A DNA stretch of 20,026 nucleotides from a virus. Its lineage: Duplodnaviria > Heunggongvirae > Uroviricota > Caudoviricetes. This document shows, piece after piece, positions 1-5,142 of this stretch. Each line of letters starts with the position of its first letter. Positions within the stretch are counted from its first letter, which is position 1. The stretch lies in IMG/VR virus record IMGVR_UViG_2695420733_000001; one strand, written 5' to 3'. Below the pieces are notes generated by a model. It ran no database searches, had not been told where the DNA came from, and saw only the letters and a program-made list of their open reading frames with translations. The position numbers were made by a program, and so were the translations under genes.

Positions 1-1
1 T

Positions 2-478
2 CATGGCTTTGATGATATCCCGTTTCAGGAAATCAACATGTCGGTTTTCCAGTTCCGGAAAACGCCGCTGCACCGACAGGGGGATCCCGTCGAGAATACT
101 GGCAATTTCACCTGCGATCCGCGACAGCACGAAAGTACAGAATGCGGTTTCCACCACTTCAGCGGAGTCTCTGGCATTCTTCAGTTCCTGTGCGTCGGCC
201 TGCGCACGCGTAAGTCGATGGCGTTCGTACTCAATAGTCCCTGGCTGGAGATCTGCCTCGCTGGCCTGGCGCAGTTCTTCAACCTCCCGGCGCAGCTTTT
301 CGTTCTCAATTTCAGCATCCCTTTCGGCATACCATTTTATAACGGCAGCAGAGTCATAAAGCACCTCATTACCCTTGCCACCGCCTCGCAGAACGGGCAT
401 TCCCTGTTCCTGCCAGTTCTGAATGGTACGGATACTCGCACCGAAAATGTCAGCCAGCTGCTTTTTGTTGACTTCCAT
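2..478 (-). CDS. nohA: Terminase small subunit (Nu1 homolog, DNA-packaging protein), N-terminal ~159 codons; 3' end runs off the window start
   Basis: Minus-strand ATG at 478; translation MEVNKKQLADIFGASIRTIQNWQEQGMPVLRGGGKGNEVLYDSAAVIKWYAERDAEIENEKLRREVEELRQASEADLQPG...RDIIKAM recognised as lambda Nu1/NohA. No stop before position 1. Absent from the ORF track. Confidence 0.85.
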   Translation of the reverse strand, partial: MEVNKKQLADIFGASIRTIQNWQEQGMPVLRGGGKGNEVLYDSAAVIKWYAERDAEIENEKLRREVEELRQASEADLQPGTIEYERHRLTRAQADAQELKNARDSAEVVETAFCTFVLSRIAGEIASILDGIPLSVQRRFPELENRHVDFLKRDIIKAM

Positions 479-653
479 TGTTCATTCCACGGCCAAAAAC
501 AGAGAAAGGAAACGACAAAGGCCCAAAAGTTCGTTTTCAGCACCTGTCGTTTCCTTTCTTTTCAGGGGGTATTTTAAATAAAAACATTAAGTTACGACGA
601 AGAAGAACGGAAACGCCTTAAACCGGAAAATTTTCATAAATAGCGAAAACCCG

Positions 654-665
654 CGAGGTCGCCGC
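654..665. other. cosN cohesive-end site (AGGTCGCCGCCC = reverse complement of lambda GGGCGGCGACCT); cosB expected between here and the Nu1 start
   Basis: Exact 12-nt lambda cohesive-end sequence on the minus strand, about 175 bp upstream of the Nu1 start, matching lambda geometry. Confidence 0.75.
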
Positions 666-866
666 CCCGTAACCTGTCGGATCACCGGAAAGGACCCGTA
701 AAGTGATAATGATTATCATCTACATATCACAACGTGCGTGGAGGTCATCAAACCACGTCAAATAATCAATTATGACGCAGGTATCGTATTAATTGATCTG
801 CATCAACTTAACGTAAAAACAACTTCAGACAATACAAATCAGCGACACTGAATACGGGGCAACCTC

Positions 867-1100
867 ATGTCAACGAAGAACAGAACCCGCAGAACAACAA
901 CCCGCAACATCCGCTTTCCTAACCAAATGATTGAACAAATTAACATCGCTCTTGAGCAAAAAGGGTCCGGGAATTTCTCAGCCTGGGTCATTGAAGCCTG
1001 CCGCCGGAGACTGTGCTCAGAAAAAAGAGTTTCTTCTGAAGCAAACAAAGAAAAGAGTGACATTACTGAATTGCTCAGAAAACAGGTCAGACCAGATTGA
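867..1100 (+). CDS. ynfO: Small prophage protein, 77 aa, N-terminus looks like a ribbon-helix-helix DNA-binding fold
   Basis: ATG at 867; position just inside cos and upstream of ydfO matches K-12 Qin ynfO. RHH call is from the pattern RNIRFPNQMIEQINIALEQKGSGNFSAWVIEACRRRL only. Confidence 0.6.
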   Translation: MSTKNRTRRTTTRNIRFPNQMIEQINIALEQKGSGNFSAWVIEACRRRLCSEKRVSSEANKEKSDITELLRKQVRPD

Positions 1101-1142
1101 AGCAATTTAGATAATCGTGCAGACTACGCCCCCTCATATCAC

Positions 1143-1568
1143 ATGGACGGTTTATCTATGGATCAGGTAGTCATTTTTAAACAAATATTTGATAAAGTTC
1201 GAAACGATTTAAACTATCAATGGTTTTATTCTGAGCTAAAACGTCACAATGTCTCACATTACATTTACTATTTAGCCACAGAGAATGTTCATATTGTATT
1301 AAAAAATGATAATACAGTGTTATTAAAGGGCCTAAAAAACATTGTGTCTGTCAAATTTTCAAAGGATAGGCATCTTATAGAAACGACCTCTAATAAGCTG
1401 AAATCCAGAGAGATCACATTTCAGGAATACAGAAGAAACCTTGCTAAAGCAGGAGTTTTTCGGTGGGTTACAAATATCCACGAACAAAAAAGATATTACT
1501 ATACCTTTGATAATTCATTACTATTTACTGAAAGCATCCAGAAAACTACACAGATCTTACCACGCTAA
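1143..1568 (+). CDS. ydfO: Qin prophage protein YdfO-like, 141 aa
   Basis: ATG-initiated 141-aa ORF; length and position between ynfO and gnsB match K-12 ydfO. Confidence 0.7.
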
Positions 1569-1719
1569 ACCATAACGTCCGGCTTCTCTCACTCCTGAGC
1601 CGGTCTGCATTGGTTTAATAAAAACCATCAACAATTGTGATTTAGATATTCGGAACCATTCAAATATAACAAAACCCCGTAAAAACGAGGTTTATGGATA
1701 AATTTTATTATTGAATACA

Positions 1720-1896
1720 TCAGATTAAATTAATCTTGACATCATAGCTTTCAAGACCCGTCATTTTTTCCCGTGCGGTAAACTGAATACTGGTAACTTC
1801 TTTCCCGGTCTTTTTCTTAAGTTCAATAATTTTTTTTGTTATATATTCAGAAATATCTGCTTCTGCTTTTGTTTTTAAGTTTTCAATATTCATCAT
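1720..1896 (-). CDS. gnsB: GnsB-like small protein, 58 aa
   Basis: Hand translation MMNIENLKTKAEADISEYITKKIIELKKKTGKEVTSIQFTAREKMTGLESYDVKINLI, close to GnsA/GnsB as recalled. Below the track length cutoff. A single n at 1912 lies just upstream. Confidence 0.75.
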   Translation of the reverse strand: MMNIENLKTKAEADISEYITKKIIELKKKTGKEVTSIQFTAREKMTGLESYDVKINLI

Positions 1897-2064
1897 TTCC
1901 TCTTTTAGTCTNTTATGACTTTCCAGTTACACAGTAAGTCGATTATATGGTGCAAACGTGTAAAAGATAAGATGAAACATCGCAATAATCAACATACGAT
2001 AGTCTAAATTTTACACAAACAGACAAAGAGAATTTTCCTGAATTATCAATGCAATAGCATCAAA

Positions 2065-2220
2065 TCAACTCAAGAGCCTTATTGCTGCTTCCAGAATTTC
2101 TTCTGAAGTAACATGTCGATCCGCGGCTACATAAATGACTTTATGATCTCCGGTCAGAGATGGAAACCCTGCGGCCATTACAGTAAGGTGTGTTTTTTCG
2201 CCATTTGGATATTCACGCAT
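2065..2220 (-). CDS. ynfN: Small Qin prophage protein, 51 aa (open frame extends upstream to 2295, 76 aa, or 2337 with TTG)
   Basis: The Met at 2220 gives exactly 51 aa (MREYPNGEKTHLTVMAAGFPSLTGDHKVIYVAADRHVTSEEILEAAIRLLS), the length I recall for K-12 YnfN. True start uncertain. Confidence 0.5.
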   Translation of the reverse strand: MREYPNGEKTHLTVMAAGFPSLTGDHKVIYVAADRHVTSEEILEAAIRLLS

Positions 2221-2339
2221 GATGGTGTTAACTCCAGTCATCGCTGGCACTACCACTGCTGGTTCAGAGTTAAAAAAAACTATGATTTTTTTCATGATGT
2301 TACCGTAGTATGTGAGTATCCATCGAATAGACACCAAGC

Positions 2340-2368
2340 AAAAAAGCTCCCGAAGGAGCCTTCATTTT
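2340..2368. terminator. Bidirectional rho-independent terminator (stem GCTCC / GGAGC, loop CGAA)
   Basis: Perfect 5-bp GC-rich hairpin with a T-run on the plus strand and a 6-nt A-run before it (T-run on minus strand). Sits between cspI and ynfN. Confidence 0.6.
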
Positions 2369-2566
2369 CACTTTTTTAAATCCAACGACAGACGGCTGGC
2401 ATTTAAGTATTGTGAAATATTATCAAATGTAATCATCATTGATTTACAAAAGATACATTTTGCCCCGAAAGGATTCATGTCAGAAACATCAAAAGATGAT
2501 GTTCTATACTGGGAACCATGACAACACGGGCATCTAAAGTGAATATGGTTTGTAATATTGTCTACC

Positions 2567-2779
2567 TCAAAGCGCCACTACATGAACAGCGGCAGGACCT
2601 TTAGGTCCGTTCTCAATACCAAATTCAACTTCCTGATTCTCAGTTAATGTTTTGAAATCGTTGCTCTGAATTGCTGAGAAATGGACAAACACATCTTTGC
2701 TGCCATCTTTCGGCGTGATGAAACCAAAACCTTTTTCAGGGTTAAACCATTTCACTAAACCAGTCATTTTGTTAGACAT
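2567..2779 (-). CDS. cspI: Cold-shock protein CspI, 70 aa
   Basis: Translation [70 protein letters not shown]; canonical CspA-family RNP motifs KGFGFI and VFVHF. Confidence 0.9.
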
Positions 2780-3141
2780 AATTATTACCTTTTGAAGAAA
2801 TTAGCCCTTGGGCAGAATGGTCCGAAAAAAAATATCAGAGAGAAAAACCAACAAGGAAATCTCAAGAGGTACAAATAATAAAATTATAACAATGACTGCT
2901 TCAGATAAATTTGTAACAAACCAGAACACCATTAACGCATGATTAACCACCCATAGCAAGGATTACTTTTGTAAAGAAAAACACAGCAATGAAAGAATAG
3001 CTTTATTTATTAATAAAACGTGTCATTCTGATTAAGACCTTTTATCTTACCCTTAAGATTTCAGGAATTTTGGCTCATGGAAGAGTCCTTTTTATTTAAA
3101 TTTTACATTCCGCGATGTAAATGTTCCGATTTAATATTACC

Positions 3142-4165
<1,024 letters not shown>

Positions 4166-4169
<4 letters not shown>

Positions 4170-4477
4170 AGATATTTATGATGAGGACGCTCGTGCTTAT
4201 TGGCAGGATTTTCAATCTTAAAGGAGTACTGATGCTGCAGATAAGACTCAACTTTTTCTGACAATTTTTCTGCTACTTCCAGGAAGACTTGCCGGACGCT
4301 CCTTCTGGCTGCTGCCTCATAAAACTCCAGCGCAGCTCCTTCAACACGGTCCATGGCGACATCCAGGTCAAAAATTTCACCGTCAAAGCGTTCTTTGTCC
4401 TGTAAGGCTACAGTTACCGTAACTTTATTCTCAAAATTACGGACTCCTTTCACAACCAGTTCATAGTCTTGAGTCAT
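4166..4477 (-). CDS. ydfR: Prophage protein YdfR-like, 103 aa, inserted between holin and endolysin
   Basis: ATG at 4477 with SD GAGGAGAG; ATGA overlap with the endolysin start; length and position match K-12 ydfR. Confidence 0.75.
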
Positions 4478-4481
4478 TGGA

Positions 4482-4697
4482 TTACTCTCCTCTCGCAGCC
4501 TTACGCCTGTCTTCTTTAATCTTGAAATAAAGATTTGTCAGATACGTCAGCAGGCCAAAAACCAGGCTACCCAGCACACCGATTGCAGCCCACTGTGACG
4601 GAGTTACTTTATCGAGTAACTGCAATGCCCAGAAACCAGCATTACCCGCCGATGTGCCATAGGCAACACCTGTTGTTAACTTATCCATTGATTTCAT
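4482..4697 (-). CDS. essQ: Class II holin/pinholin with dual-start motif MKSM, 71 aa
   Basis: Met at 4697 with a GAGG SD; a second Met three codons later (M-K-S-M) is the classic holin/antiholin dual start. Two TM segments. The track's 96-aa version is an upstream open-frame extension. Confidence 0.8.
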
Positions 4698-4828
4698 ATC
4701 CTCACCCCGATGTACACGGATGGTGCAATATGTTTGAAAAGATCGGAGTCTACGGGGTAGTTTTGACAGCACACGTTGTTCTCAACGGCGCTAAAAAAAC
4801 ATACACATTAAAAATGTGGGTAATTATT

Positions 4829-4857
4829 TTGAAAGAAAGTCATATATAAAATAATAA
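4829..4857 (+). promoter_or_regulatory. Candidate sigma-70 promoter for ynfU (TTGAAA, 17-nt spacer, TAATAA)
   Basis: Hexamers read directly with 17-bp spacing about 60 nt upstream of the ynfU start. Confidence 0.35.
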
Positions 4858-4916
4858 TACGAGAAATGTTTTCATATTTAGTGTACTGTATACGGCCATT
4901 TATACAGGAAAAGCCT

Positions 4917-5087
4917 ATGTCAGAACGTAAAAACTCAAAATCACGCCGTAATTATCTCGTTAAATGTTCCTGCCCAAACTGCACCCAAGAGTCAGAACAC
5001 AGTTTTTCAAGAGTACAAAAAGGTACCCTTTTGATCTGCCCTCATTGCAACAAAGTATTCCAGACAAATCTTAAAGCTGTAGCCTGA
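4917..5087 (+). CDS. ynfU: Small zinc-ribbon protein with CxxC...CxxC, 56 aa
   Basis: MSERKNSKSRRNYLVKCSCPNCTQESEHSFSRVQKGTLLICPHCNKVFQTNLKAVA; two Cys pairs; length matches K-12 YnfU as recalled. The track's 73-aa ORF is an upstream extension. Confidence 0.65.
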   Translation: MSERKNSKSRRNYLVKCSCPNCTQESEHSFSRVQKGTLLICPHCNKVFQTNLKAVA

Positions 5088-5142
5088 TTGATTTTATTAG
5101 TAACAAGTATTTTTTATATTTTAATAATATATTTAAAGCAGA

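Follow-up and report, generated by a model that had tools for sequence, protein, structure and literature searches.

ynfO beside the cos end of a Qin-type prophage: a probable Arc-like DNA-binding regulator, with ydfO as a separate cargo gene

The genes ynfO and ydfO lie one after the other next to the cohesive-end (cos) site of IMGVR_UViG_2695420733_000001, a 20,026-nt tailed-phage record (Caudoviricetes) that is called the window here over its full length. The best explanation of this locus, to which a probability of about 0.6 is given as a whole, is that ynfO encodes a lone Arc-like DNA-binding regulator and that ydfO is unrelated cargo, a DUF1398 moron with the fold of Protein Data Bank (PDB) entry 2HH8 and not a toxin partner. 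YnfO would be a small, probably dimeric, Arc/Mnt-like ribbon-helix-helix (RHH) protein whose working part is residues 1-49. Its family, DUF3950 (YlcI/YnfO), would consist of solitary regulator genes on the strand opposite to the surrounding operon, placed at the junction of the lysis/moron region and the packaging genes in lambdoid phages and divergent from an icd-primase operon in satellites. YnfO most likely acts by binding an operator in its own upstream region, for which the ATCAA/TTGAT cluster at 762-806 is the candidate in the window; the protein would thereby regulate its own gene as well as a transcript that diverges from it or runs through it. Expression probably responds to iron by way of a host Fur site at 705-723. 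In the Qin-type arrangement ydfO may be co-transcribed with ynfO and may also be driven from its own upstream region (1084-1157).

Genes at the cos end

A preliminary description of this DNA had placed two + strand open reading frames (ORFs), at 867-1100 (77 amino acids, aa) and 1143-1568 (141 aa), just inside cos. Both ORFs are present as described and are real genes, not chance ORFs. Window positions 480-1700 are 99.7% identical to many E. coli chromosomes, in which RefSeq names the two genes ynfO (YlcI/YnfO family) and ydfO (DUF1398); the E. coli setting is a Qin-type lambdoid prophage with the gene order nohA, ynfO, ydfO, gnsB, ynfN, cspI, rzpQ. YnfO scores 75.6 bits against Pfam DUF3950 (PF13132; cut-off 25) and 36.6 bits against NCBIfam YlcI_YnfO_N (NF041551; cut-off 30), and YdfO scores 157.5 bits against Pfam DUF1398 (PF07166; cut-off 22, E 1.7e-46). 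The position relative to cos was also given correctly, the ynfO ATG being 200 bp downstream of the cohesive-end sequence. The two genes themselves are known, ordinary y-genes of E. coli prophages, and nothing in the window is unexpected. The features that define the locus are as follows.

867..1013, + strand: ynfO codons 1-49, the conserved DUF3950 domain, marked by Pfam and NCBIfam matches, invariant columns, purifying selection, AlphaFold2 (AF2) helices and matches to RHH-annotated PHROGs
1014..1100, + strand: ynfO C-terminal tail, residues 50-77, with the TGA stop; lineage-specific, the product of a mosaic junction, with low AF2 confidence
1158..1568, + strand: ydfO, DUF1398 protein of 136 aa (Pfam DUF1398; PDB 2HH8; start from RefSeq and homologue alignment)
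656..667, - strand: cosN, the 12-nt lambda cohesive-end sequence aggtcgccgccc, the reverse complement of GGGCGGCGACCT; the sole exact match in the window
1..478, - strand: 5' part of nohA, a lambda Nu1-type small terminase gene (Pfam Phage_Nu1, E 2.3e-98; nohA in E. coli annotation), running off the left end of the window and divergent from ynfO

The conserved domain of YnfO and its likeness to Arc

Conservation in YnfO is confined to residues 1-49, MSTKNRTRRTTTRNIRFPNQMIEQINIALEQKGSGNFSAWVIEACRRRL, with the columns that are invariant across subtypes ending at L49; the tails beyond are unrelated between subtypes, hypervariable and changed at every mosaic junction. Over codons 1-49 (147 nt), diverged alleles have 22-25 synonymous differences and only 3-5 non-synonymous ones, which indicates strong purifying selection on the protein. 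Residues 1-49 are probably its functional unit. No functional study of ynfO, ylcI or DUF3950 was found in the literature.

An RHH fold for this domain is quite probable. The preliminary description had guessed such a fold from the N-terminal pattern of the protein, and the guess is favoured by a profile register, PHROG matches and predicted helices, although no comparison with an RHH protein is statistically convincing. The proposed elements are a strand at about residues 12-17, helix A at 19-32 and helix B at about 37-49. When the YnfO family profile is compared by hhalign with Arc (E 0.003), Mnt (0.076) and CopG (0.12), the strand and helix A fall in register, with YnfO NIRFPNQMIEQIN over P22 Arc NLRWPREVLDLVR; nothing was aligned by hhalign with Cro, used as a control. 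In the Arc alignment N14 and R16 of YnfO occupy the positions of Arc N11 and R13. For helix B the register was set by inspection, with FSAWVIEAC of YnfO over NSEIYQRVM of Arc and a nearly invariant Ser at the start of the helix. The HicB-like phrog_497 is matched by 11/23 diverged family members (best E 8.3e-5), and the Arc-like repressor PHROGs 228, 582 and 6506 are matched over the same residues 4-60, down to E 6.8e-4. The AF2 monomer has an extended N-terminus, a helix at 19-32 and a second helix from 34, with a predicted local distance difference test score (pLDDT) of 82-84 over 21-50. This model and the register with Arc, Mnt and CopG agree with the RHH layout, which is a strand-helix-loop-helix unit of about 45 residues whose N-terminal strand has alternating polar or basic residues. 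The best structural matches of YnfO are RHH antitoxins, CopG-family 7etr_B and ParD2, at Foldseek E-values >1.

Among characterized proteins, Arc and Mnt of phage P22, which belong to the RHH superfamily with CopG, ParD and the C-terminal domain of HicB, resemble YnfO in having a domain of about 45-50 residues, an N-terminal strand of alternating polar or basic residues followed by Pro (NIRFP in YnfO, NLRWP in Arc), and two helices of matching length with a conserved Ser opening helix B. They are likewise small stand-alone regulators of a temperate phage, and the satellite homologues of YnfO have several short palindromes over promoters. YnfO differs from them in having no significant sequence or profile match to either, in its long basic N-terminal arm, MSTKNRTRRTTTR, in its variable and probably unstructured tail, and in the place of its gene, which is next to cos and not in the immunity region.

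DUF3950 genes in satellites

Distant DUF3950 proteins (38-50% identity; Proteus, Morganella, Serratia, Klebsiella and a Pasteurella satellite) are all encoded in satellites of the phage-inducible chromosomal island (PICI) or P4-like kind. There the gene is alone on its strand, opposite to all its surroundings, and lies between int-alpA-(antA/bro) and an icd/DUF4222-primase operon, from which it diverges.

L243-L248 and L253-L254, around 3840-4000: satellite loci of Proteus, Serratia, Klebsiella and Morganella with a lone opposite-strand DUF3950 gene

Within the 100 bp upstream of the satellite gene there are three GTG-N6-CAC palindromes (Proteus, Serratia and Klebsiella; L243-L248). All three copies in the 8.2-kb Proteus locus fall within those 100 bp, with about one expected per locus. 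Their spacing is 23 and 46 bp in both Proteus and Serratia, and the middle Klebsiella site is off-pattern by one base. The palindromes overlap a divergent promoter, TTGACG-N16/18-TATAAG/TATGGT, together with the -10 region of the gene's own promoter. Palindromes over a promoter are the layout of a small repressor and so provide the strongest indirect support for DNA binding by this family. The satellite DUF3950 protein may be a repressor of the icd-primase (replication) operon.

Several further observations concern the annotation and setting of these genes. In the Pasteurella phage Pmp7 (L255), a 224-aa "transcriptional repressor", Pmp7_0008 (4435-5109, - strand), is a low-complexity ORF antisense to a clear but unannotated DUF3950 gene at 4853-5032 on the + strand, and is probably a wrong-strand call; a similar antisense call of 278 aa in L243 is missing from near-identical loci. 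The mobile-element context does not hold in Rouxiella (L252, 4001-4180), where a 59% identical DUF3950 gene directly follows cytochrome bd oxidase genes and is not accompanied by any phage or satellite gene within 4 kb. Finally, at NZ_CP027459.1 3713000-3728000 (L259) a satellite with int, a helix-turn-helix (HTH) regulator, YlcI/YnfO, an Icd-like protein, primase, TerS and capsid genes sits inside a lambdoid prophage, in its terminase region; a separate YnfO-like gene belonging to the prophage adjoins HNH and TerS. The arrangement agrees with the published "helper-embedded PICI" configuration (PMC10111431).

Candidate sites upstream of ynfO

Two sites stand out between cos and ynfO.

705..723, - strand: Fur box between cos and ynfO, matching the consensus GATAATGATAATCATTATC at 16/19 positions and lying 144-162 bp before the ynfO ATG
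762..806, no strand assigned: ATCAA/TTGAT palindrome cluster, with ATAATCAATTAT at 762-773, an inverted repeat at 765-777/785-797 and TTGATCTGCATCAA at 793-806

The Fur box is the one match of a consensus scan of the window, and no match at all appeared in any of 100 shuffles. It lies about 40 bp inside cosN and, going by the lambda coordinates, probably adjoins cosQ. Strain K-12 has a "nohA" Fur site that was selected in vivo, was predicted with 22.3 bits at 233 bp from nohA and was gel-shifted with Fur (PMC2189734). The box at 705-723 is the counterpart of that site, which is thus known to be bound by Fur in K-12. Because it lies about 150 bp upstream of ynfO, a gene that was unannotated at the time, ynfO (and ydfO, if the two are co-transcribed) appears from its position to be a more likely Fur target than nohA. 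Two papers on the Fur regulon name neither ynfO nor ydfO and yielded no expression data for them.

The cluster at 762-806 is a candidate YnfO operator. The region is almost invariant among lambda-type phages, and its conservation does not discriminate.

Evidence against an Arc-like regulator, and two alternatives

A number of observations weigh against the view that YnfO is an Arc-like regulator acting at its own upstream region. The hhalign probability against RHH proteins is only 6-11%. PDB sequence searches with the single YnfO sequence and with two family profiles returned no RHH protein, Foldseek E-values are all above 1, the YnfO model had no significant match in BFVD, and a Pfam scan of diverged members yielded one marginal RHH_6 match only. 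The AF2 model is a single chain from a shallow alignment, with a mean pLDDT of 68, in which an intertwined dimer would not be visible. The candidate operator in the window is unlike the satellite palindromes, and GTG-N6-CAC sites do not occur in the lambda-type upstream region; the strand of lambda-type proteins has N where satellite proteins have G, so that a different target is expected. Promoter scans found no sigma-70-like promoter upstream of ynfO, and the literature assigns Fur binding to nohA (PMC2189734). YnfO and YdfO could conceivably interact physically in the Qin-type arrangement. Profile searches for bridging homologues returned DUF3950 proteins for all of the top 120 matches.

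YnfO could instead be a small basic helical protein of another fold, for example one that binds RNA or acts as a protein adaptor, with a convergent likeness to Arc. We consider this unlikely. It would have to accommodate the register that strand and helix A share with Arc, Mnt and CopG, the independent matches to several RHH-annotated PHROGs over the same residues, and the operator-like palindrome triplets upstream of the satellite homologues, all of which argue for an RHH protein.

A second alternative concerns function: members of the YnfO family could be DNA-binding factors associated with the packaging site or the terminase, for example modulating or blocking cos/pac recognition in competition between prophage and satellite. 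Such a role is kept in play by the constant position of the gene beside packaging genes and by fusions to a small-terminase HTH. The place next to the packaging start is retained with unrelated terminases, since ynfO is 200 bp from cosN with its Nu1-type terminase gene, and in L164 the ynfO-family gene is 41 bp from an HNH-TerS (Terminase_2) cluster. The fusions are found in two diverged satellite proteins, in which DUF3950 is joined to a Terminase_2 small terminase that is reduced to its N-terminal HTH, with the same end boundary in both.

L256 4001-4363 and L258 4001-4390: DUF3950-TerS-HTH fusions, proteins P0328 and P0310

In most of the satellites examined, however, the gene belongs to the regulatory region beside alpA and the primase operon, and operator-like palindromes cover a promoter, which fits a repressor, and neither lambda cos nor cos-region homology was found near the satellite DUF3950 genes. 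The lambda region also contains no known essential gene (p78 and p79 are listed as non-essential, in a list that does not cover the ylcI-like ORF), and PGAP calls the fusion in E. coli 90-3040 two pseudogene fragments. A packaging role is therefore improbable on present evidence. The same applies to the broader proposal that DUF3950 is a dedicated RHH class working at the packaging-module boundary of lambdoid prophages and PICI/P4-like satellites, whose solo proteins bind by cos or terminase genes and whose RHH-TerS-HTH fusions are terminase-site decoys. If true, it would place the family in packaging control or in phage-satellite or phage-phage interference, not in ordinary gene regulation, and this activity would be linked through the host Fur site to the iron status of the cell.

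ynfO and ydfO are not a two-gene module

The Arc-like regulator proposed here would act without a dedicated partner, whereas the preliminary description had read ynfO and ydfO as a two-gene module of the toxin-antitoxin (TA) kind. That reading is wrong, as judged from the distribution of the two genes, the mosaic structure of the locus and the nature of both proteins. The ynfO domain occurs in 153 phage records, of which 43 have a DUF1398 gene and 110 do not. Among viral contigs, a ydfO-like gene lies within 2.5 kb at 0/67 loci of one subtype; a scan seeded with a second subtype gave 54/68 loci without ydfO within 2.5 kb, the other 14 being the lowest-identity rows. The 5,426 complete E. coli genomes hold 8,362 detectable copies of the domain segment, 2,301 copies of this ynfO-ydfO junction (~27%) and 3,876 ydfO-like copies.

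Comparison with lambda locates the breaks. Lambda is 98% identical to window 1-1029, from the terminase gene through ynfO codon 54; homology then stops and is regained from window 1084 on, 75 bp ahead of the DUF1398 gene. In between, lambda has 614 bp with ybcW (lambda p79) on the other strand, and the window has 54 unrelated bp. The lambda/DLP12 region (ylcI - ybcW - ybcV - bor; lambda p79, p78, bor) is thus the same cos-proximal region, with a DUF1398 protein 79% identical to YdfO and the 75 bp upstream of its gene conserved, and differs in that the 54 bp of the window give YnfO a new 28-residue tail and make the genes adjacent and in frame. The 54-bp segment probably arose by deletion or replacement in the Qin-type lineage, to judge from this alignment. 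In other phages homology to ynfO breaks at codon 45. In the Shiga toxin (Stx)-like phage L088, ynfO is followed by opposite-strand genes, and in L164, with its HNH and Terminase_2 packaging genes, window 867-1001 is the only homologous part; in each case both neighbours of the gene are on the other strand.

The junction has also left a trace in protein databases. ynfO and the upstream ydfO ATG at 1143 share a reading frame with a single intervening stop, the TGA at 1098-1100, and a "YnfO-YdfO fusion" cluster, P0122 (233 aa), has 761 members. It was rejected as a real fusion or read-through product; the DNA has TGA at the junction, so that the W in these proteins is a gene-calling artefact (alternative genetic code, short contigs).

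A type II TA system, with YnfO as an RHH antitoxin that represses the operon and neutralises YdfO by its C-terminal tail, is very improbable. The arrangement is suggestive in that a small RHH-like gene directly precedes a larger one of like orientation, with no terminator-like site on the + strand between them, and in that RHH antitoxins (7etr_B, ParD2, HicB-like) are what YnfO resembles best by structure and by PHROG. The likeness to the RHH antitoxins of type II systems (ParD, CopG-family SO_1444, CcdA, RelB) extends to an N-terminal RHH-like domain with a flexible tail. RHH antitoxins bind their toxin through the C-terminal tail, and the YnfO tail is wholly different between lineages whose YdfO proteins are 79-100% identical; conservation ends at L49, and ynfO has neither a conserved partner gene nor a conserved tail. 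Of the 153 phage records with the domain, 110 lack the pairing, as do most copies in E. coli, and in lambda/DLP12 the genes are about 0.6 kb apart with the opposite-strand ybcW between them. Type II TA operons are usually tightly coupled, in contrast to the 57-nt spacer between the end of ynfO and the ydfO start at 1158. YdfO has no known toxin fold, and no toxin or defence family was found for DUF1398 in Pfam or PADLOC. Moreover, YdfO was made in quantity for a nuclear magnetic resonance (NMR) structure, its overexpression has been linked to higher oxidative-stress resistance and not to toxicity (literature cited in PMC4077768), and knock-down of the lambda DUF1398 gene p78 had no effect on plating (PMC10695390).

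ydfO as a separate cargo gene

The 141-aa size first given for YdfO corresponds to an ORF from 1143 that exists, whereas the conserved start is the ATG at 1158, which gives 136 aa; RefSeq uses 1158, and homologues align from there, with M6 of the longer form nearly invariant. A Shine-Dalgarno-like GGA(C)GG lies 8-13 nt upstream of 1158, and none was found before 1143. PDB 2HH8 ("hypothetical protein ydfO", NMR) was made from the 141-aa form and is matched at E 4.7e-90 over 141/141 residues, with two positions differing; a PDB profile search with YdfO matched only this entry. An AF2 model of YdfO from a 20-sequence alignment has a pLDDT of 47 and is too poor for fold searching. The window protein is of the same kind as YdfO, YbcV and YcgX (DUF1398; 2HH8) and differs from them in nothing. 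The literature on ydfO yielded only notes on expression and overexpression, among them that the K-12 transcript is strongly inducible (PMC4077768). Labels such as "putative envelope protein" and "head protein" for DUF1398 in phage records are unverified.

The "moron slot" of the preliminary description is a fair term as far as ydfO is concerned. The gene lies between the lysis genes and cos, hence between the lysis and packaging modules, and is present in only 43/153 phages that carry the ynfO domain. As to the promoter and terminator expected of a moron, promoter scans found no consensus promoter for ydfO, and no + strand terminator was found; the 75 bp upstream are conserved with lambda. Since the segment from 1084 is conserved in this way, ydfO has probably retained its own promoter region at 1084-1157. 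A weak candidate site for a host regulator overlaps its left border.

1081..1097, + strand: weak PdhR-like box AACAGGTCAGACCAGAT, at the 3' end of ynfO and upstream of ydfO

A SELEX-chip study reported a PdhR site with 10/14 matches between K-12 ynfO and ydfO, and found that mutation of pdhR lowers the paralogous ybcV/ybcW 9- to 10-fold (PMC7660256). A PdhR consensus scan of the window allowing <=3 mismatches missed the weak site of that study.

Neighbouring features and contaminated family counts

Downstream of ydfO and convergent with it is gnsB (window 1720-1896, - strand; Pfam GnsAB_toxin, E 3.3e-35), with a terminator-like hairpin at 1693-1672; a single ambiguous base (n) occurs at 1912 in the gnsB-ynfN intergenic region. 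The only Rfam match is a cspA-type thermoregulator 5' untranslated region (RF01766, 112.8 bits) at window 2540-2925 on the - strand, upstream of the cold-shock gene cspI (2567-2779); no RNA family was matched by Rfam in window 1-2500.

Many entries in the list of YnfO homologues are frameshifted lambda sequences, whose source records are ENA contigs of about 3.5 kb or are labelled Staphylococcus, Bacillus, Campylobacter phage or spider. Lambda control DNA is their most likely origin, and they inflate the family counts; the nanopore control strand is a 3.6-kb amplicon of the right end of lambda.

Implications

A probable function can now be given to DUF3950, that of an Arc-like DNA-binding regulator which occurs alone, and a tempting but wrong toxin-antitoxin annotation of ydfO is removed. 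In lambdoid phages and in satellites, the family is the mark of a conserved position and comes with candidate operators that can be tested. These are modest additions, but DUF3950 is present in thousands of E. coli prophage copies and also in lambda, whose classical record leaves the ORF unannotated. The assignment would offer a handle on lambda biology next to cos, on a possible replication-operon repressor in satellites of Gram-negative bacteria, and on the meaning of the "nohA" Fur site.

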